A stretch of 64,000 nt of DNA from an uncultured Oscillospiraceae bacterium (GTDB lineage: Bacteria; Bacillota; Clostridia; UMGS1883). Location of the stretch: positions 5,044-69,043 of the forward strand of contig CAZNIC010000006.1 of NCBI GenBank assembly GCA_964572985.1, given 5' to 3'. A program made the translations under genes and the position numbers. The notes under the pieces are model-generated. The model was not told the origin of the DNA, did not search any database, and saw nothing but the letters and a program-made list of their open reading frames with translations. Positions 37,430-45,591 of this stretch are shown piece by piece (the first letter of the stretch is position 1; each line of letters opens with the position of its first letter).

Positions 37430-38108
37430 ACATAGTATTTTTAGTATTTTATCAATAATATTTTTATTAACGTTGGCAATTTTGAGCAATGTTTTTCTTG
37501 GAAATGAAAAGTATATGCTGGTTGCAACCATTGGTGCTTTAATAAGTATAATTCCGTTTTTTACAGCTTTTGAAAATAAGAGACACACAACGCGGGAAGC
37601 CGTTATAATCGCTGTAATGGTAGCACTTTGTGTTTCAGGACGTCTAATTTTTACTATAGTACCGCATTTTAAACCTGTTACAGCACTTGTAATCATAACA
37701 GGCATATATTTTGGTTCCGATGCCGGCTTTATAACAGGCTCTCTTACAGCATTGGTGTCCAATATGCAGCACGGACAGGGTCCATGGACGGTGTTTCAAA
37801 TGTCGGTTTGGGGATTAATCGGTTTTTTTGCGGGATTTTTAAACAAAAAACGACTTTTGCAAAACAGGTTTTCGCTGATGGTTTTTTCGGGTATTTGTGG
37901 GGTTATATATTCTTTAATAATGGATATATATACAACAATAAGCATAGATAGTGTATTTTCATTCGAAAGATATTTGTTTTACGTGGCAACGTCTGTACCT
38001 ATAATGCTTGAATACATAATTTCAAACATTGTTTTTATCTGTGTTTTACAAAAACCTATTGGAAACAAACTTTTGAGAATAAAAACAAAATATGGTTTAT
38101 TTAACTAA
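37416..38108 (+). CDS. ECF transporter substrate-specific (S) component, putative cobalamin-specific (CbrT-like)
   Basis: A 230-aa, ~6-TM protein overlapping the ecfA end and last in the riboswitch-controlled operon. Specificity is inferred from context only. Confidence 0.55.
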   Translation: MVTIKHSIFSILSIIFLLTLAILSNVFLGNEKYMLVATIGALISIIPFFTAFENKRHTTREAVIIAVMVALCVSGRLIFTIVPHFKPVTALVIITGIYFGSDAGFITGSLTALVSNMQHGQGPWTVFQMSVWGLIGFFAGFLNKKRLLQNRFSLMVFSGICGVIYSLIMDIYTTISIDSVFSFERYLFYVATSVPIMLEYIISNIVFICVLQKPIGNKLLRIKTKYGLFN

Positions 38109-38136
38109 AAAAGCACCTTTTTAGGTGCTTTTTTAT
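38108..38136. terminator. Bidirectional terminator between the ECF-S gene (+) and xerD-like gene (-)
   Basis: 'AAAAAGCACCTTTTTAGGTGCTTTTTTATG': an 8-bp stem with U-runs on both strands. Confidence 0.8.
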
Positions 38137-38138
38137 GT

Positions 38139-39122
38139 TTATTCATTATTTTTAAGCTTTTTAGTATTTGCAAGAGGATTACGGTTAACTGCATCATGCA
38201 ACTGTTTTTCGTCAACATGTGTATAAATCTGTGTTGTAGAAAGCTGTTCGTGCCCTAAAATTTCTTGTAATGCTCTCACGTCAACATCTCCGTGAACATA
38301 CATAAGCGTTGCTGCGGTATGTCTGAGCTTGTGCGGGGAGTACTTTTCGGGATCAAGCCCGGCTCTTTCCATATTCTTTTTTACCATTTTATATACCATA
38401 TTATTGGAAATACGAGTTTTTCTTTTGCTCAAAAACAGCGCATCACGATCAATAACACCATCATGAGGTCGGACCTTCAGATAGTCATTTATTGCCGAAA
38501 CACAGGCATCATTTAAATAAACTTTACGTTCTTTGTTGCCTTTGCCTCGTATAAATATGCTTTTTTCTTGCATATCGTGCATATTTATGCCGACAAGTTC
38601 GCTAAGACGCATACCACAGTTCAAAAACAGCGTAATTATGGCATAATCGCGTACTGCAAATTCGCCGTCAACGGCTTCAAGCAGCTTTAAAGATTGTTCG
38701 AGCGTAAGATATCTTGGTAATTTTTTTGGAATTTTAGGAGATTCCAAATCTTTAGCAATATTATCATCAAGCTGATGTGATTTAACAGTCATGTAATTAT
38801 AGAAAGATTTTAAACAGGAAATTTTGCGAGCCAAAGCATTAGGATTGTTGTCACGTGAATTTCTGATATACATAAGAAATTCGTACAAATCATCAGTATT
38901 AAGTTTTTTTAATTCATTTAAAGAAAAATCAGAACAATCAATTGTATCAAATTCATCAAAGGAGGCTTTGTTAAAATAACACAACATAAATCTAAAAAAA
39001 GTTCTGAGGTCATAATAATATTCATGAACAGTTTTATCAGATTTTCCAAGAATGGTAGACATATGGACAAGAAAACGCCGTGCAAAGCCCGGAATATCGT
39101 GGTATTCATTATGTACATTCAT
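38139..39122 (-). CDS. Tyrosine site-specific recombinase, XerC/XerD family, with an extended N-terminal domain
   Basis: C-terminal catalytic motifs 'HKLRHTAAT' and 'LGHEQLSTTQIYTH' (R-H-R-Y tyrosine). The N-terminal region is ~40 aa longer than canonical XerD. Confidence 0.8.
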   Translation of the reverse strand: MNVHNEYHDIPGFARRFLVHMSTILGKSDKTVHEYYYDLRTFFRFMLCYFNKASFDEFDTIDCSDFSLNELKKLNTDDLYEFLMYIRNSRDNNPNALARKISCLKSFYNYMTVKSHQLDDNIAKDLESPKIPKKLPRYLTLEQSLKLLEAVDGEFAVRDYAIITLFLNCGMRLSELVGINMHDMQEKSIFIRGKGNKERKVYLNDACVSAINDYLKVRPHDGVIDRDALFLSKRKTRISNNMVYKMVKKNMERAGLDPEKYSPHKLRHTAATLMYVHGDVDVRALQEILGHEQLSTTQIYTHVDEKQLHDAVNRNPLANTKKLKNNE

Positions 39123-39237: not shown

Positions 39238-40479
39238 TCAGTCAATAAGAGCACTTGCAGCAAGCATTACAGCAATTTTTCCGCTTTCGTATGTCAGACC
39301 ACCTTGAAGGTATCCTACGTACGGAGGTTTTATCGGAGCATCTGCGCTGATTTCAATGCTTGCACCCGATACAAATGTTCCTGCAGCCATAATAACCTGG
39401 TGATTGTATCCGGGCATATCCCATGGTTCAGGTGTAACAAAGCTGTCTACCGGTGATGCCGCCTGGATTGCTTTGCAGAATTTTATAAGCTTATCTGCAT
39501 CATTAAACTTAATAGACTGAATTATATCGCATCTCTTCCCCGTGGATGTGGGATTTACCTCAAAGCCGAGTTTTTCCATCATTGCACCGCAAAAAACAGC
39601 AGTTTTAACAGCTTGGGAAACAATATGAGGTGCCATAAAAAAGCCTTGTAACATATGACGGTTTTGACCAAGCGTTGCACCGCATTCTTTGCCTATACCG
39701 GGGCTCGTCTGTCTGTATGCTGCCAGCTCAACACATTCTTTGCTTCCCGCAATGTATCCGCCGGATTGTGCAAGTCCGCCACCAACGTTTTTTATGAGCG
39801 AACCTACAATCATATCTGCACCGTAATTGCTTGGTTCTTCACGTTCGACAAATTCACCATAGCAATTATCAACCATGCAGATAGTGTCAGGTTTTATTGA
39901 CTTAATGAACGATACAATCTCCCCGATTTCTTTTGCGGACAGCGTGTCACGCCAATCATAACCTTTACTTCGCTGAATAATACAGCATTTTACATCACTC
40001 GTAAGCTCTTTTTTTATGTTATCGAAATCGGGTTTGTTGTCTTTTAAATCTACCTGACGGTAGCTAACTCCAAATTCTTTCAGACTGCCGCCTTTTCCGT
40101 CTCCGGAAATACCGATGGCTTCCTCAAGTGTATCATATGGTTTGCCTGTTACTGCAAGAAGCGTATCACCGGGACGGAGTACTGCAAAAAGTGCAATGCT
40201 TAACGCATGAGTGCCATTGACAATGTTATGCCGTACAAGTGCATCTTCTGTGCCAAAAGTATCGGCATAAATCTGATCAAGCACCTCTCTTCCGATATCG
40301 TTATAACCATAGCCTGTAGAATGATTAAAATGAGAATCACTTACGCGGTTTTTTATAAAAGCATTCAGTACTTTTTCCTGATTGTACTGTGCAATATTTT
40401 CAATTTCCTTAAACTGAGGCGCTATTTCCTCTTCTACTTCTTTAGCTAATTTAATAATTCTTTCGTCAATTTTGAGCAT
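39238..40479 (-). CDS. PLP-dependent methionine-gamma-lyase-family protein (YnbB / 'aluminium resistance protein' family)
   Basis: N-terminal 'IAQYNQEKVLNAF...SDSHF..STGYGYND.GRE' is typical of the YnbB family (PF06838). Confidence 0.7.
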   Translation of the reverse strand: MLKIDERIIKLAKEVEEEIAPQFKEIENIAQYNQEKVLNAFIKNRVSDSHFNHSTGYGYNDIGREVLDQIYADTFGTEDALVRHNIVNGTHALSIALFAVLRPGDTLLAVTGKPYDTLEEAIGISGDGKGGSLKEFGVSYRQVDLKDNKPDFDNIKKELTSDVKCCIIQRSKGYDWRDTLSAKEIGEIVSFIKSIKPDTICMVDNCYGEFVEREEPSNYGADMIVGSLIKNVGGGLAQSGGYIAGSKECVELAAYRQTSPGIGKECGATLGQNRHMLQGFFMAPHIVSQAVKTAVFCGAMMEKLGFEVNPTSTGKRCDIIQSIKFNDADKLIKFCKAIQAASPVDSFVTPEPWDMPGYNHQVIMAAGTFVSGASIEISADAPIKPPYVGYLQGGLTYESGKIAVMLAASALID

Positions 40480-40504: not shown

Positions 40505-40535
40505 TGGTCTGTCTCATTTACATGAGACAGACCAA
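40505..40535 (-). terminator. Hairpin terminator after the decarboxylase operon
   Basis: 'GGTCTGTCTCATTTACATGAGACAGACC': an 11-bp perfect stem, with a T-rich tract following on the minus strand. Confidence 0.55.
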
Positions 40536-40547
40536 ACCTATTAATTT

Positions 40548-41945
40548 TTATATGGGATGAGTTTTTTCTTCTGTATTTGCAAGGTTTGGATCGATTTTAT
40601 ATTTCTGACCCTGACGATACTTAAAGTATTTTGTTGCAACCTGATCAAAGAGTGCATATGAAAGCACGTCTTCATCCTGTTCAATATATTCTGCAATTTC
40701 ACCTCTGAACTTATCAAGCTCATTAGGAATCTGGTCTGCAGGTCTGCATTTGATAACTTCTTCGTCACCTATAATCTTTTTTCTGAATTCATCAGAAATA
40801 GGTGCAGGTGTCTGACCATATTCACCGCGTACCATAGCGCGGAATTCTTTGGTTGTCATCTTATATCTCTCACCCATTATTACGTTAAGTACAGCCTGTG
40901 TACCAACAATCTGGCTTGTGGGTGTTACAAGAGGCGGATAACCTGCATCGGCACGAACTCTGGGAACTTCATTAAGAACTTCCTCATATTTGTCTTCCTT
41001 ACCCTGCTGCTTAAGCTGAGAAATAAGGTTGGAAAGCATGCCACCGGGAACCTGATATTTAAGAGTATTAGCATCTACGCTGAGTGCTTTGGGGTCAAGA
41101 AGACCACTCTTGATATATTCTTCGCGAAGAGGACGGAAATAGTCAGCAATTTCGGAAAGAAGATTCAAGTCATAGCCGGTATCATACTGAGTGCCTTTAA
41201 GTGTCGCAACCAAGGATTCTGTCGGAGGCTGGCTTGTACCGAGAGACATTGGGCTCATAGCACAGTCAACAACGTCAATACCTGCTTCAATTGCCTTAAG
41301 ATACGTCATAGATGCTACGCCACTTGTATAATGTGTGTGGAGCTGAATCGGAATTTTAACAGCCTGTTTCATTCCTGATACAAGGTCATATGCAACATAA
41401 GGCGTAAGAAGACCTGCCATATCCTTGATACAGATACTGTTCGCACCCATATCTTCCAGCTGTTTTGCAAGCTTGATAAAGGATTCATTTGTGTGGAAAT
41501 CGCTTAAAGTGTAGCTGATTGCCGCCTGAACATGGCCTTTTTCTTTGATTGTGGCATTAATAGCTGTTTCAAAGTTTCTTACGTCGTTAAGAGCGTCAAA
41601 AATTCTTAAGATGTCAATACCGTTTGCAATAGATTTCTGAACAAAGTATTCAACAACATCGTCTGCATAATGACGATAGCCCAAGATATTCTGTCCGCGG
41701 AAAAGCATCTGTAAAGGAGTGTTTTTAGCCTTGTCCTTTATCTTTCTGAGTCTTTCCCAAGGATCCTCGTTAAGGAAACGGAGACAAGAGTCAAAGGTTG
41801 CTCCTCCCCACGCTTCCAAGGAATGATAACCAACTTTATCGAGTTTTTCTACAATACCCAAGATCTGCTCTGTTGTCATTCTTGTTGCAATAAGTGACTG
41901 ATGAGCATCACGGAGGACTGTTTCTGTAATTTTAACCATTTTCAT
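40548..41945 (-). CDS. Carboxyltransferase 5S-type subunit (oxaloacetate decarboxylase alpha / pyruvate carboxylase subunit B homolog lacking a biotinyl domain)
   Basis: 'ITETVLRDAHQSL' N-terminus and TIM-barrel HMGL-like domain. It is 465 aa with no C-terminal 'AMKM' lipoyl/biotinyl domain. Confidence 0.8.
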   Translation of the reverse strand: MKMVKITETVLRDAHQSLIATRMTTEQILGIVEKLDKVGYHSLEAWGGATFDSCLRFLNEDPWERLRKIKDKAKNTPLQMLFRGQNILGYRHYADDVVEYFVQKSIANGIDILRIFDALNDVRNFETAINATIKEKGHVQAAISYTLSDFHTNESFIKLAKQLEDMGANSICIKDMAGLLTPYVAYDLVSGMKQAVKIPIQLHTHYTSGVASMTYLKAIEAGIDVVDCAMSPMSLGTSQPPTESLVATLKGTQYDTGYDLNLLSEIADYFRPLREEYIKSGLLDPKALSVDANTLKYQVPGGMLSNLISQLKQQGKEDKYEEVLNEVPRVRADAGYPPLVTPTSQIVGTQAVLNVIMGERYKMTTKEFRAMVRGEYGQTPAPISDEFRKKIIGDEEVIKCRPADQIPNELDKFRGEIAEYIEQDEDVLSYALFDQVATKYFKYRQGQKYKIDPNLANTEEKTHPI

Positions 41946-41956
41946 TTACCTCCTAA

Positions 41957-43225
41957 TCAAATACCTGTAAAGTTCGCAAGGAATACACCGGCTGCAACAG
42001 CACTACCGATAACACCTGCAACATTGGGACCCATAGCGTGCATAAGAAGGAAGTTTGAAGGATTTTCTTCCTGTCCTACTACCTGGCTCATTCTTGCTGC
42101 CATAGGTACTGCACTTACGCCCGCAGAGCCAATAAGAGGATTAATCTTACCGCCTGTAAGCTTACACATCAACTTCGCAAGAAGCAAACCACCAATTGTA
42201 CTAACGCTGAAAGCTGCAAGACCAAGGCAAATAATAAGCACCGTCTTGGGAGTAAGGAATGTGTCTGCTGTTGCCGTAGCGCCTACGGTAATACCGAGGA
42301 AAATTGTGATAATATTCATGAGCTCATTCTGTGCAGTCTTGCAAAGACGCTCTGCAACGCCGGATTCCTTGATGAGATTACCGAGCATAAGTGTACCTAC
42401 TAAGCTCGCAGAATCAGGAACCAGCAAAATAACGATAAGAGCAACTGCAATGGGGAAAATGATTTTTTCCTTCTGTGTTACGGGACGAAGCTGTTCCATA
42501 ACAATTTGTCTTTCCTTCTTTGTTGTCATCGCCTTCATTATAGGAGGCTGAATAAGCGGAATAAGAGCCATATAGCTGTATGCAGCAATAGCTATAGCTG
42601 AGAGTAATCCGGGAGCAAGGGTCTTTGTAACAAAGATTGCCGTAGGACCGTCTGCACCACCGATAATACCGATTGATGCAGCTTCTTTGAAAATTGTAGC
42701 AACGTTACCGTCAGCGCCAAAACCAAAGAGACCGAACGCGCCCAGTAACACCGCGCAGAAAAACGTAATAAATACACCCAGCTGTGCTGCCGCACCTAAA
42801 AGAATACTCTTAGGGTTGGAAATAAGAGGACCGAAGTCCGTCATACATCCAATACCAAGGAAAATGAGCGGAGGATAAATACCGAGTTTTACACCTAAAT
42901 ACAAAAGGTCTAAAAGACCGCCTTTATTTAAAATAAGGCTGAAATTAAGTTTGCCTCCCTCAAGAAGGTATTCAGGGTCAATAAAGTATTCGGGATGCAT
43001 AACACCACCTAAAGGAAGGTTTGCCAAAAGCATACCGAACGCTATGGGTAAAAGCAAAAGCGGTTCAAACTTTTTCACTATTGCTAAATACAAAAGTACA
43101 CACGCAATAAGAAGCATAACGAGTGTTTTCCAACCGCCATCTGCAAATTTCATCGCTATTTCAGCGACACCGGTTTTCATAGCAAAACTGCTCAAACCGT
43201 CAGCTAACATTTCGAACATTTGCAT
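41957..43225 (-). CDS. Na+-translocating decarboxylase beta subunit (OadB/MmdB/GcdB family)
   Basis: A 422-aa polytopic membrane protein with 'GIIGGADGPT' and the C-terminal hydrophobic core typical of OadB. Confidence 0.85.
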   Translation of the reverse strand: MQMFEMLADGLSSFAMKTGVAEIAMKFADGGWKTLVMLLIACVLLYLAIVKKFEPLLLLPIAFGMLLANLPLGGVMHPEYFIDPEYLLEGGKLNFSLILNKGGLLDLLYLGVKLGIYPPLIFLGIGCMTDFGPLISNPKSILLGAAAQLGVFITFFCAVLLGAFGLFGFGADGNVATIFKEAASIGIIGGADGPTAIFVTKTLAPGLLSAIAIAAYSYMALIPLIQPPIMKAMTTKKERQIVMEQLRPVTQKEKIIFPIAVALIVILLVPDSASLVGTLMLGNLIKESGVAERLCKTAQNELMNIITIFLGITVGATATADTFLTPKTVLIICLGLAAFSVSTIGGLLLAKLMCKLTGGKINPLIGSAGVSAVPMAARMSQVVGQEENPSNFLLMHAMGPNVAGVIGSAVAAGVFLANFTGI

Positions 43226-43256
43226 TTGTGTTCACACTCCAATCTGCGTTAATATA

Positions 43257-43616
43257 TTAGGCAATAGTAACTAAAACGTCGCCTGTATTAACACTGGAGC
43301 CCTTAGATGTAACAACAGTAACTGTACCTGCCTTGGGAGCCTTGATATCATTTTCCATCTTCATTGCTTCCAAAACTACAAGAACATCACCTTCGTTAAC
43401 CTTTGCACCGTTAGACACTTTAATATCAAGCACTGTACCGGGCATGGGAGCCTTTACGGGATCGCCCTTGCCTGCAGGAGCAGCAGCTTTTGCAGGGGCA
43501 GCCGCCTGAGCAGATACTGCCGCAACGGGTGCCGCAGGAGCAGAAACAGCACCGCCTACTTCTTCAACCTCAACTTCATATGAATTACCGTTTACGTTTA
43601 TGATAAATTTTCTCAT
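43257..43616 (-). CDS. Biotin carboxyl carrier protein (1.3S / MmdC-like)
   Basis: Ala/Pro-rich linker followed by biotinylation motif 'LEAMKMEN'. Confidence 0.88.
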
Positions 43617-43630
43617 CTTATTTATCCTCC

Positions 43631-44023
43631 TTAAAATCTGTTATCAAGTACTTCGCGCTTGGCGGCGTTGCCCCATGCGGAAGATACTTTCTTGTAGCTT
43701 CTGATGTTTACGCTTGCACTGCTTGTGCCCATACATGCGGCAACTGCTGCTGTAAGGACTGCGATAAGTTCATTGTCATCAACAGCAGGCTCATCAGTCT
43801 GAACAATAGAATCCTCTATGTTTTTGTCAACAAGGCTCGTCTGTGAATTTGCTTTTTTAGACTGTTTTTCCTTCTTAGGTTTATTGCCCGAGAAAAGGCT
43901 CATTGCCTGAATTGTAAGCATGATAAGTATCAAAATCGCAAATACAACCAACATACCTTCAATTGTAATAACTACACCGTAAGAGATAATCTCACCGGGA
44001 GTTTTAAGATCATATATATTCAT
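43631..44023 (-). CDS. Decarboxylase small membrane subunit (OadG/MmdD-like)
   Basis: N-terminal TM, a charged linker, and C-terminal '[12 protein letters not shown]', the OadG-family signature. Confidence 0.7.
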
Positions 44024-44038
44024 ACAAGCACCCCTCTA

Positions 44039-45526
44039 TCAAAGCGGCATGTTGTCGTGCTTACGTGAAGGAGCACCTACGCGCTTGCTTCTGAGCATTT
44101 CAAATGCTGCAATAACTCTGGGACGAGTTTCGCCGGGGATAATAATATCGTCAACATAACCCATAGCTGCTGCATTATAGGGTGATGCAACAGTTTCTTT
44201 ATATTCTTCAACAAGTGTCTCTCTGCTCTCGCCCGCTTTAAGACGTTCAGAGAACATAACACCAACACCTGCTTCGGGTGCAATTGCTGCAATACATGCT
44301 GTGGGGAAAGCAAGCACGATATCAGCACCGGTCTGCTTCGAGTTCATAGCTGCATAAGCACCACCATATGCTTTCTTAACTATAACATTTACCTTGGGTA
44401 CAGTAGCTTCAGTAAACGCGTACAAAAGTCTTGCGCTCTTTCTTGCCAGACCCCAGTTTTCCTCATCTGCGCTTACCTTAAAGCCTTCAACATCTGTAAA
44501 AGTAAGTATTGCAATGTTAAAAGCATCACAAAAACGCACAAATCTTGCCATCTTTTCAATAGCTTGTCCGCTGAGAGTACCGCCTTCTTCATTGCCCTGA
44601 TTTGCAACAACGCCAACAGTTACACCGTTAAGTCTTATAAAGCCTGTAACTGCGCCTCGTGCATAATTAATATGGCTTTCCATGAAAGCACCATCATCGG
44701 CAACTGCCGCGATAAGGCTTCTTACATCATATTCGCCATCAACACCCATGAAGCTGTCGCTCATACGGTTAAGGTCATCCATACAATCAAACTCAGGAGC
44801 ATCACAAAGATTGTTAGAAGGAAGATAACTCAAAAGAAGCTTTACTGTTTCAAGCGCCAATGTATCATCTTTTGCAATAAAATGAGCATTGCCGGAAACT
44901 GTTGCACATGCTTTTGCGTCAGCACTGTAAGCCTTGTTTGTTGTTGCAGTAACAACAGAGGGCGAATTAACAAAAAGCTCTGCTTTTTCGCTCATAACAA
45001 CAAAATCACTCATTTCGGCAACAATGGCACTTGACGCCGCACATGTGCCGAGTACTGCACAAATTGTGGGTACAACACCCGATACGCGAGATACAGCCGC
45101 AAGAATTTCGCCTACTGCCGCCTGTGCAATAACGCCTTCTTCCAATCTTGCGCCGTTGCTGTCAAGCATAGCAATAACGGGAGCACCCATTTTGGCAGCC
45201 ATTTCGTAAACCTTACAAATCTTTTTTGCGTGCATTTCACCCACACACCCACCAATTACAGTAGGATCCTGTGCATAAGCAAAAGTAAGCCTACCGTCAA
45301 CAGTGCCGTAACCTGTTACAACGCCGTCAGCAGCAGTATCTTTTCCTCGAGCTGAAACAAAAGCATCAAGTTCAATAAAACTGCCCTCATCAAAGAGATT
45401 ATTCATTCTCTCGCCTGCAAGCATTTTTCCCGAACTCTTTACTTTGCTCTGCATATCTGCGCCACCGCCAAGCGATACAGTCTGCCTTGCCGCGTTGCGC
45501 ATAGCAAGCTTTTCATCCATGCTCAT
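44039..45526 (-). CDS. Acyl-CoA carboxyltransferase 12S-type subunit (methylmalonyl-CoA decarboxylase alpha / propionyl-CoA carboxylase beta family)
   Basis: Two crotonase-like CT domains: 'DGVVTGYGTVDGR', 'GGCVGEMHAKKICKV' and 'GGAYAAM'. Confidence 0.88.
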   Translation of the reverse strand: MSMDEKLAMRNAARQTVSLGGGADMQSKVKSSGKMLAGERMNNLFDEGSFIELDAFVSARGKDTAADGVVTGYGTVDGRLTFAYAQDPTVIGGCVGEMHAKKICKVYEMAAKMGAPVIAMLDSNGARLEEGVIAQAAVGEILAAVSRVSGVVPTICAVLGTCAASSAIVAEMSDFVVMSEKAELFVNSPSVVTATTNKAYSADAKACATVSGNAHFIAKDDTLALETVKLLLSYLPSNNLCDAPEFDCMDDLNRMSDSFMGVDGEYDVRSLIAAVADDGAFMESHINYARGAVTGFIRLNGVTVGVVANQGNEEGGTLSGQAIEKMARFVRFCDAFNIAILTFTDVEGFKVSADEENWGLARKSARLLYAFTEATVPKVNVIVKKAYGGAYAAMNSKQTGADIVLAFPTACIAAIAPEAGVGVMFSERLKAGESRETLVEEYKETVASPYNAAAMGYVDDIIIPGETRPRVIAAFEMLRSKRVGAPSRKHDNMPL

Positions 45527-45591
45527 TTTCTATACCTCCCAGTTTAATAAAAAATATTTTCTATAATAAATTAACGGTTCAACCGTTATTA

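Follow-up and report, generated by a model that had tools for sequence, protein, structure and literature searches.

A conserved five-gene cluster of Clostridia encoding a putative Na+-translocating oxaloacetate decarboxylase with a derived 12S-like subunit

A stretch of 64,000 nucleotides from an uncultured Oscillospiraceae bacterium (GTDB lineage Bacteria; Bacillota; Clostridia; UMGS1883; assembly GCA_964572985.1, contig CAZNIC010000006.1, positions 5,044 to 69,043 of the forward strand) was analysed. This whole stretch is called the window below, and positions are counted from its first letter. The window contains a cluster of five genes on the minus strand (45526 to 40548), namely, in the order of reading, the genes of a 12S-type carboxyltransferase homolog, an OadG/MmdD-like membrane anchor, a stand-alone biotin carboxyl carrier protein (BCCP), the carboxybiotin decarboxylase and Na+ channel OadB, and a 5S-type oxo-acid carboxyltransferase (Table 1). 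An initial annotation, made from the letters alone, had named the same genes in the same order, and matches to protein families confirmed it. Chance is no concern for these gene identities, because the homology E-values reach 1e-150. The gaps between consecutive genes are 15, 14, 31 and 11 nt, a Shine-Dalgarno sequence is present at each gene, and the sole strong intrinsic terminator is located just 3' of the 5S gene. Inside the cluster, no terminator or promoter splitting the 5S gene from OadB and the rest was found, and the 65-nt spacer that divides the 12S gene from its upstream neighbour, an rsuA-like gene, had no predicted sigma-70-like promoter. The five co-oriented, tightly packed genes are consistent with co-transcription as a single operon. 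The closest public genome (GCA_965342825.1; locus L001, with a 12S protein 95% identical to that of the window) contains the identical five genes in a matching neighbourhood.

The 5S protein ends after the carboxyltransferase domain and has neither an association domain nor a BCCP domain. It passed the NF008985 model and the PycB domain model NF006761, and it scored under the cutoffs of TIGR01108 (708 against 756.5) and of the transcarboxylase-5S-specific model NF008984 (581 bits against 827). Its whole-length identity to Vibrio cholerae OadA (2NX9) and to PycB (5KS8) is 60–65%; the bit scores are 513–516 for these two proteins and 469 for the 5S subunit 1RQB. Among all sampled relatives, the 5S identity is 68–99%. 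Residues D13, K174, H203 and H205 align with D17, K178, H207 and H209 of V. cholerae OadA, which we take to be the metal and catalytic residues of that enzyme (Studer et al. 2007). The open reading frame begins with MKMVKITE. The AGGAGG sequence 5' of it is separated by 3 nt from the first ATG and by 9 nt from the second. Given this spacing, and given that the L001 ortholog was called with a length of 463 aa, translation probably begins at the second ATG (41939).

The OadB protein gave 392 bits against Salmonella OadB (6IVA), and the motifs GGADGPT, GSAGVSAVPMAAR and MHAMGPNVAG are conserved in it. The BCCP consists of an invariant N-terminal anchor peptide, an Ala/Pro linker and a biotinyl domain; in an alignment of hybrid clusters (those with 12S, OadB and 5S) and pump-less clusters its first 20 residues are nearly invariant, and this peptide presumably resembles the N-terminal anchor of the transcarboxylase 1.3S subunit. 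The membrane anchor has a single transmembrane helix near its N-terminus (residues 17–35, hydropathy peak 2.87). Its conserved C-terminal motifs, including IRSYKK..W, are common to the delta subunit of an operon of the methylmalonyl-CoA decarboxylase (MMD) type that has 12S only (L016). A comparison of this OadG-like protein with the PDB gave no informative match, and the MMD-specific models scored well under their cutoffs, with 25 against 150 for the anchor (NF047902, MmdD) and 90 against 200 for the BCCP (NF047903, MmdC). As far as can be judged from alignment, the catalytic motifs of the 5S protein, the BCCP and OadB look intact.

To describe the state of the 12S-like subunit, a near-universal set of 180 alignment columns was taken from 74 canonical proteins of the 12S/PccB/MmdA type from many phyla, with a conservation of at least 93% as the threshold. 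The window protein retains 118 of the 180 columns, and its clade (about 100 sequences of 483–505 aa) retains 107–130. Canonical 12S orthologs from the same type of operon (Petroclostridium, Monoglobus and others) retain 170–180, with 180 in Petroclostridium and 177–180 in Petroclostridium and Monoglobus together. The scores against the mmdA model TIGR01117 (cutoff 999) follow the same division: 506 bits for the window protein and 485–606 for its clade mates, against 845–943 for canonical orthologs, the canonical hybrid of Petroclostridium reaching 943 and a pump-less Bacillota ortholog (L020) 882. Proteins from an MMD context scored 937 (Pelosinus) and 916 (Dethiosulfatibacter).

The lost residues are found in the classic motifs of the family (Table 1). 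Oxyanion hole 1, whose residues were placed by alignment to PccB (3IBB), carries an Ala-Ser pair, and the AVYSP motif beside it is gone; the role of PccB G182/G183 in this hole has been described (10.1101/2024.04.30.591959, 10.64898/2026.02.06.704326). In the wider short clade, T or S occupies the first position of oxyanion hole 2 in 75% of the sequences. The remodelled motifs differ from lineage to lineage and share no new consensus. By its score, its retained columns and its A-S oxyanion hole 1, the window protein falls outside the canonical MmdA type, and it is unlikely to act as a canonical methylmalonyl-CoA carboxyltransferase. Note that its bit scores against PccB, 12S and archaeal enzymes are all alike (377–413). 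Since neither these scores nor those of the 5S protein (469–516) discriminate between the known structures, trees labelled by genomic context were used instead.

Table 1. Genes, sequence motifs and transcription signals of the five-gene cluster (window coordinates).
Feature	Position	Strand	Remarks
12S-type (MmdA/PccB-like) carboxyltransferase homolog, 495 aa	44039–45526	minus	PF01039 over full length, E 8.8e-127; strongly derived
OadG/MmdD-like membrane anchor, 130 aa	43631–44023	minus	PF04277; TIGR01195 52 against cutoff 36
Stand-alone BCCP, 119 aa	43257–43616	minus	PF00364; EAMKME; codon of biotinyl Lys86 at 43359–43361
OadB carboxybiotin decarboxylase / Na+ channel, 422 aa	41957–43225	minus	PF03977 E 1e-154; TIGR01109 491 against cutoff 191
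5S-type oxo-acid carboxyltransferase (OadA-like), 465 aa	40548–41945	minus	PF00682 and PF02436; NF008985 814 against cutoff 718
12S, NDSGGARIQEG motif			LDSNGARLEEG in the window protein
12S, oxyanion hole 1	45002–45049	minus	canonical GPCAGGAVYSPA.TDF, window GTCAASSAIVAEMSDF; PccB G182-G183 replaced by A164-S165
12S, ELGGA..H motif			deleted in the window protein
12S, DVPGFLPGxxQE motif	44459–44494	minus	window DVEGFKVSADEE; canonical P347, P351, G352 and Q355 replaced
12S, AVMGxEGA motif			AAIAPEAG in the window protein
12S, oxyanion hole 2 motif YGGAYAAM	44345–44368	minus	G389-A390 retained; Ala at the position of PccB D422
Intrinsic terminator closing the operon	40505–40534	minus	13-bp stem with 6 GC pairs, T-rich tail
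Short 7-bp hairpin in the rsuA-like/12S spacer	45572–45588	minus	possible weak terminator

The 12S subunit is strongly derived, its evolution has been accelerated, and it is under strong constraint at present. Its identity to seven outgroups is 38–46% in the window clade and 56–71% in canonical hybrids, and within the window clade the 12S proteins are 51–65% identical, compared with 81–89% for the 5S proteins. The identities of OadB and 5S to the same seven outgroups are equal in the window clade and in the canonical hybrids; a lineage-wide fast evolution was therefore rejected. The 76 formerly universal 12S columns that are not kept have a variability of 1.26 bits, against 1.16 bits in ordinary columns, and 99 universal columns are still almost invariant (0.16 bits). 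Only 9 formerly universal positions have been re-fixed to a new residue. Relative to the L001 ortholog, the ratio of nonsynonymous to synonymous substitution rates (dN/dS) is 0.035 for 12S and 0.022 for 5S, and the values of flanking housekeeping genes are similar. An AlphaFold2 model of the 12S protein had a mean confidence (pLDDT) of 86 and TM scores of 0.92–0.95 to 1VRG, 1ON3 and PccB. Given the low dN/dS and the intact fold of this model, a decaying pseudogene was rejected as well. An attempt to prove inactivity of the 12S protein from its oxyanion-hole residues was abandoned, as the active enzymes MCC-beta and AccD4 vary at these positions too.

The five-gene order recurs in other genomes at 12S identities down to 48%. 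The carriers include uncultured Clostridia, Petroclostridium xylanilyticum, a Monoglobus metagenome-assembled genome (MAG) and Oscillospiraceae MAGs. Gut Lachnospiraceae of the Dorea/Faecalicatena group have this gene order too. A metagenome scan seeded with the 5S protein yielded 80 loci (68–80% identity), and the 38 of them with at least 4.6 kb of upstream DNA were evaluated. The arrangement 12S...OadB-5S was found in 31 loci and 12S-BCCP-5S without a pump in six, and one locus (L135) had the same genes in looser spacing; a 5S gene without a 12S-like gene was not found in any of the 38. This constant linkage, together with the lack of a separating promoter or terminator in the window, bears out the initial annotation in grouping the 5S gene with the rest of the set. 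The view of the set as an unusual hybrid did not hold. The "hybrid" is the normal form in Clostridia and not an exotic one: in the sample it comprises 32 clusters of 12S proteins at 90% identity. Its largest group belongs to human-gut Lachnospiraceae (Dorea, Faecalicatena contorta, Sporofaciens), where a single cluster of the Dorea type at 90% identity has 2419 member sequences. The operon of these gut Lachnospiraceae (L160, 3122–8398; proteins P0121–P0240) encodes a 479-aa 12S-like protein that keeps about 106 of the 180 conserved residues and is annotated as "acyl-CoA carboxylase subunit beta".

The 12S proteins, clustered at 90% identity, were then classed by genomic context. Operons with 12S and OadB and without 5S (the MMD type) account for 19 clusters, all of them canonical. 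Hybrid operons with 12S, OadB and 5S account for 32 clusters, four canonical and 28 derived, and operons with 12S and 5S and no pump for 12, of which eight are canonical (plus one partial sequence) and three derived. Thus, the 12S protein is derived in 31 of the 44 5S-linked clusters and in none of the 19 where it is the sole carboxyltransferase (Fisher p = 8e-8, uncorrected for phylogeny). On the 5S tree, the derived state is located at at least four separate places, interleaved with the canonical one. These two results allow us to assume that 12S escapes its constraints only when a 5S protein is present to load the BCCP, and that this has happened repeatedly.

Several loci depart from the common layout. 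Three of them (L111, 4899–8392; L112, 4472–7670; L134, 5257–8395) contain 12S-BCCP-5S with no OadB or anchor gene in the locus, and their 12S proteins retain 77–89 of the 180 columns. The locus L092 (474–5004) contains a gene for canonical 12S (176/180), only the C-terminal part of the OadG-like gene, a BCCP gene, about 900 nt without detectable OadB, and a 5S gene; judging from this layout, its pump may be in the course of being lost.

The window operon was compared with known biotin-dependent systems. Like MMD (Veillonella parvula MmdABCDE, Propionigenium modestum MmdADECB; EC 7.2.4.3), it encodes a 12S-type alpha subunit, an OadG-like delta subunit, a separate BCCP as gamma subunit and an OadB-type beta subunit, and both the architecture and the C-terminal motifs of the anchor are similar to those of an MMD-type delta subunit. 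However, the additional 5S gene 11 nt after OadB means that 12S is not the sole carboxyltransferase, there is no epsilon subunit, and the alpha subunit is derived in both columns and score. In addition, genes for methylmalonyl-CoA mutase, its epimerase, citrate lyase, phosphoenolpyruvate (PEP) carboxykinase and biotin carboxylase were looked for and none was found within the 64-kb window. With the classical oxaloacetate decarboxylase (OAD) OadGAB of Klebsiella, Vibrio and Salmonella (EC 7.2.4.2), the operon shares a 5S-type carboxyltransferase, a canonical OadB and an anchor of the OadG family, but the classical alpha subunit includes the association and BCCP domains that the window 5S protein does not have. 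A separate BCCP, as in the window, is found in the split OAD of Enterococcus faecalis (OadA/B/D/H; PMC6193673). Neither of the two known OAD types includes a 12S-like gene, and the window operon is located among housekeeping genes and not beside genes for citrate lyase or citrate transport.

The three soluble components of Propionibacterium transcarboxylase (12S, 5S and 1.3S; EC 2.1.3.1) are likewise all encoded in the window operon. The same three are found in pump-less 12S-BCCP-5S clusters of Clostridia, Geobacter and Bathyarchaeia, including three-gene versions in close relatives. Unlike in these systems, the genes for OadB and the anchor are inserted in the window operon, and its 12S protein is derived while that of the pump-less clusters is mostly canonical. 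In glutaconyl-CoA decarboxylase (GcdABCD of Clostridium symbiosum and Acidaminococcus), an alpha head is similarly joined to the beta subunit by the delta anchor and the N-terminus of the BCCP (PMC7145394), but GcdA is distant from the window 12S protein (92 bits) and no genes for glutamate fermentation are present.

The reading we prefer, with a probability of about one half, is that the products of the operon form a single membrane complex, a biotin-dependent Na+-translocating OAD of the split Firmicute type built on a transcarboxylase-like core, in which the 12S protein is mainly structural. The intact 5S protein would transfer the carboxyl group of oxaloacetate to the biotin on the separate BCCP, OadB would decarboxylate the carboxybiotin and export Na+, and the OadG/MmdD-like protein would anchor the soluble head to OadB. 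The 12S-like protein may have been inherited from an MmdA- or transcarboxylase-like ancestor; it would form the oligomeric core that binds the C-terminal tail of the anchor and the N-terminal peptide of the BCCP, and the 5S protein would dock on it as in the Propionibacterium transcarboxylase. A 12S hub that ties 5S and BCCP to the membrane is suggested by three features, namely the absence of an association domain in 5S, the resemblance of the anchor to MmdD, by which the 12S-type alpha subunit of MMD-type enzymes is tethered, and the presence of 12S in 38 of 38 loci. We infer this architecture, a loss or change of catalysis in the 12S subunit, and a physiological role in which PEP-derived oxaloacetate would be converted to pyruvate with a gain of Na+-motive force. 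Such a route was proposed for related organisms (PMC3561251). It would be a housekeeping role, and the location of the operon among housekeeping genes fits it. A carboxyltransferase of a related C. thermocellum cluster occurs in membrane fractions (PMC3039559). In a stricter version, which we offer tentatively and at somewhat less than even odds, the system is a clostridial OAD on a transcarboxylase-shaped head whose 12S hexamer has degenerated, independently and on four or more occasions, into a pseudo-carboxyltransferase without catalysis that would serve as an assembly hub only.

A number of points weigh against the preferred reading. The split OAD of E. faecalis has no 12S subunit (PMC6193673), so OADs do not in general depend on a 12S scaffold. 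Sequence cannot prove that the 12S protein is inactive, because the transfer uses oxyanion holes made of backbone amides, at which G/A changes are tolerated in active enzymes (A-G/A-G in MCC-beta and G-A/G-G in AccD4; 10.1101/2024.04.30.591959, 10.64898/2026.02.06.704326). The window protein still has oxyanion hole 2 (G389-A390) and many of the core motifs, and its dN/dS is as low as that of a working enzyme. The pump-less loci L111, L112 and L134 carry derived 12S proteins too, and if these were inert there would be no obvious sink for carboxybiotin unless a pump is encoded elsewhere. Finally, a part of the compared proteins served to define the canonical columns, and the association with genomic context is uncorrected for phylogeny.

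These points leave room for a two-headed Na+ pump, in which the 12S protein would still be active on methylmalonyl-, malonyl- or another acyl-CoA and would load the shared BCCP together with 5S. Two working heads, for methylmalonyl-CoA and for oxaloacetate, had been put forward in the initial annotation. Some relatives have a canonical 12S, among them Petroclostridium and Monoglobus, whose proteins score up to 943 bits on TIGR01117 and retain 177–180 of the 180 columns; for these relatives the model is quite plausible, and this part of the idea is kept. As it was stated for the window, with its 506 bits, 118 columns, A-S oxyanion hole and remodelled motifs, it is unlikely. The window protein does keep its fold. 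Oxyanion hole 2 is also present in it, as is the skeleton D-S-x-G-x-R, G-x-C-A, D-F and G-F...E-E, purifying selection on the protein is strong, and the first four genes (12S, anchor, BCCP, OadB) stand in what we take to be the Propionigenium order, mmdA-D-(E)-C-B. The Ala at the position of PccB D422 (for this residue, see PMC7835884) would suit a relaxed acyl specificity. However, the protein has lost one in three of the universal residues, at positions that now drift, AVYSP is gone along with the canonical oxyanion hole 1, the remodelled motifs vary by lineage with no convergence on a new consensus, and none of the 19 clusters in which 12S is the sole carboxyltransferase is derived. The genes of the methylmalonyl-CoA pathway, including mutase and epimerase, were not found nearby in the 64-kb window, and a head that decarboxylates malonyl-CoA would waste a fatty-acid precursor.

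The remaining explanations keep a catalytic task for 12S or separate 5S from the complex. A membrane-tethered transcarboxylase or reversible carboxylase, in which 12S would pass the 5S-derived carboxyl group to an acyl-CoA, has all its components encoded (12S, a 1.3S-like BCCP with the N-terminal anchor, and 5S). It could, for example, make malonyl-CoA from acetyl-CoA without ATP, with OadB as an overflow valve; alternatively, OadB would run in reverse and the Na+ gradient would drive the carboxylation of pyruvate or an acyl-CoA. Dimroth and Hilpert reportedly demonstrated the reversal of biotin-dependent Na+ pumps in 1984. The close relatives L020, L098, L101 and L102 have three-gene versions without a pump in which 12S is canonical, and such clusters were proposed as transcarboxylases in the Clostridia strain BL-4 (PMC7764203) and in Geobacter (PMC2996986). 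Yet the degeneration of 12S makes this improbable, as both heads would be needed, and among the sampled clusters those without a pump mostly have a canonical 12S and those with a pump mostly do not, whereas a pump-assisted transcarboxylase would lead one to expect the reverse. A new role of the derived 12S as a soluble decarboxylase of carboxybiotin, a regulator of the carboxybiotin flux or a transferase to a non-CoA acceptor would agree with the strong selection, with the nine re-fixed positions, with the biotin-side oxyanion hole kept in the window protein and with the derived forms in three pump-less clusters, where carboxybiotin needs a sink. No new motif is conserved across lineages, however, the pump-less loci may encode OadB elsewhere, and we know of no precedent for a 12S protein with a new carboxybiotin-directed or non-CoA role; we regard it as very improbable. 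Least credible of all, and hardly to be expected, is that 5S is the PycB of a two-subunit pyruvate carboxylase with its biotin carboxylase encoded elsewhere, the remainder being an ordinary MMD. The 5S protein resembles PycB (5KS8, 516 bits) as much as OadA, and it passed NF006761, but a biotin carboxylase gene was not found in the operon or the window, the 11-nt gap from OadB to 5S is free of terminators, 5S is linked to OadB in 31 of the 38 loci, and the 12S protein is not a canonical MmdA.

The host is a spore-forming member of the Clostridia, and the operon is surrounded by housekeeping genes. On its upstream side are genes for rsuA-like, dacA-like and ytfJ products, a DUF2953 gene, scpB, scpA, an M50 peptidase and a lysA-like gene, as well as prsA-like, mfd, pth, prs, glmU and murC. 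The downstream side has genes for a YnbB-like pyridoxal phosphate (PLP) enzyme, a Xer-like recombinase and a B12-regulated uptake cluster of the energy-coupling factor (ECF) type; more distant genes of the window include araA, gerABC, trkAH, argGH and ruvB. In several relatives, an open reading frame of about 113 aa without a Pfam match is located between the rsuA-like and 12S genes (L002, 7491–7832; L088, 6546–6887; L090, 6451–6798); it is missing from the window and from L001. The gene directly 3' of the operon terminator (39238–40479, minus strand) encodes a PLP enzyme of the YnbB/Met_gamma_lyase family (PF06838, E 5e-188) with a dN/dS of 0.020; its position is kept in L001 and not in more distant relatives.

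Next to this gene, the Xer-like tyrosine recombinase gene (38139–39122) lies directly at a strand switch at about 38100–38140, where the plus-strand genes end at 38108 and the minus-strand genes at 38139, with a bidirectional hairpin at 38106–38135. The GC skew changes its sign at this point, and the cumulative skew peaks at about 36–38 kb. The switch could be a replication terminus or a mere coding-strand bias. On the plus strand, two tandem cobalamin riboswitches (RF00174; 29677–29865 and 30423–30613, 108 and 113 bits) were found, each 5' of a gene on this strand; the two products are a 176-aa protein and a 719-aa protein that contains a beta-propeller and a CarboxypepD_reg domain. The genes that come next, up to 38108, encode a prenyltransferase-like toroid protein, a DUF4430 protein, CbiQ, a double ABC ATPase and an ECF S-component. 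From its gene content, this set looks like a B12-regulated capture and uptake cluster.

Biotin-dependent Na+ pumps are a textbook case of energy conservation driven by decarboxylation. To our knowledge, there is no complete holoenzyme structure of such a pump, and we know of no characterised clostridial version, although Clostridia dominate gut and rumen metagenomes. Related clusters were labelled simply as "oxaloacetate decarboxylase" (Cthe_0699-0701, Ccel_1736-1738; PMC3561251), and those without a pump were treated as putative transcarboxylases (PMC7764203, PMC2996986). In the searched literature, no account of the five-gene arrangement as such was found, and nothing beyond lumped "OAADC" annotations and proposals of a "transcarboxylase" for clusters without a pump. 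Thus, neither the conserved architecture of five genes nor the repeated degeneration of 12S appears to have been described in that literature, while the component families are all known and were annotated piecemeal.

If the 12S protein is the assembly core, the subunit composition would be new for any OAD and the system would be a clear case of recurrent pseudoenzyme evolution. A repeated decay of 12S to a hub would also join transcarboxylase, MMD and OAD in a single evolutionary series. The 12S-like genes carry the annotations "acyl-CoA carboxylase subunit beta" or "methylmalonyl-CoA decarboxylase alpha", and mmdA serves as a marker for the succinate route to propionate (e.g., PMC12888040). 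Under the same reading, many "mmdA" and "acyl-CoA carboxylase beta" annotations in gut Firmicutes would not denote enzymes of propionate metabolism, and the derived 12S genes of Lachnospiraceae and Oscillospirales could be mistaken for a capacity to form propionate. For saccharolytic Clostridia, the operon bears on the routing of PEP to pyruvate and on the gain of Na+-motive force (PMC3561251).

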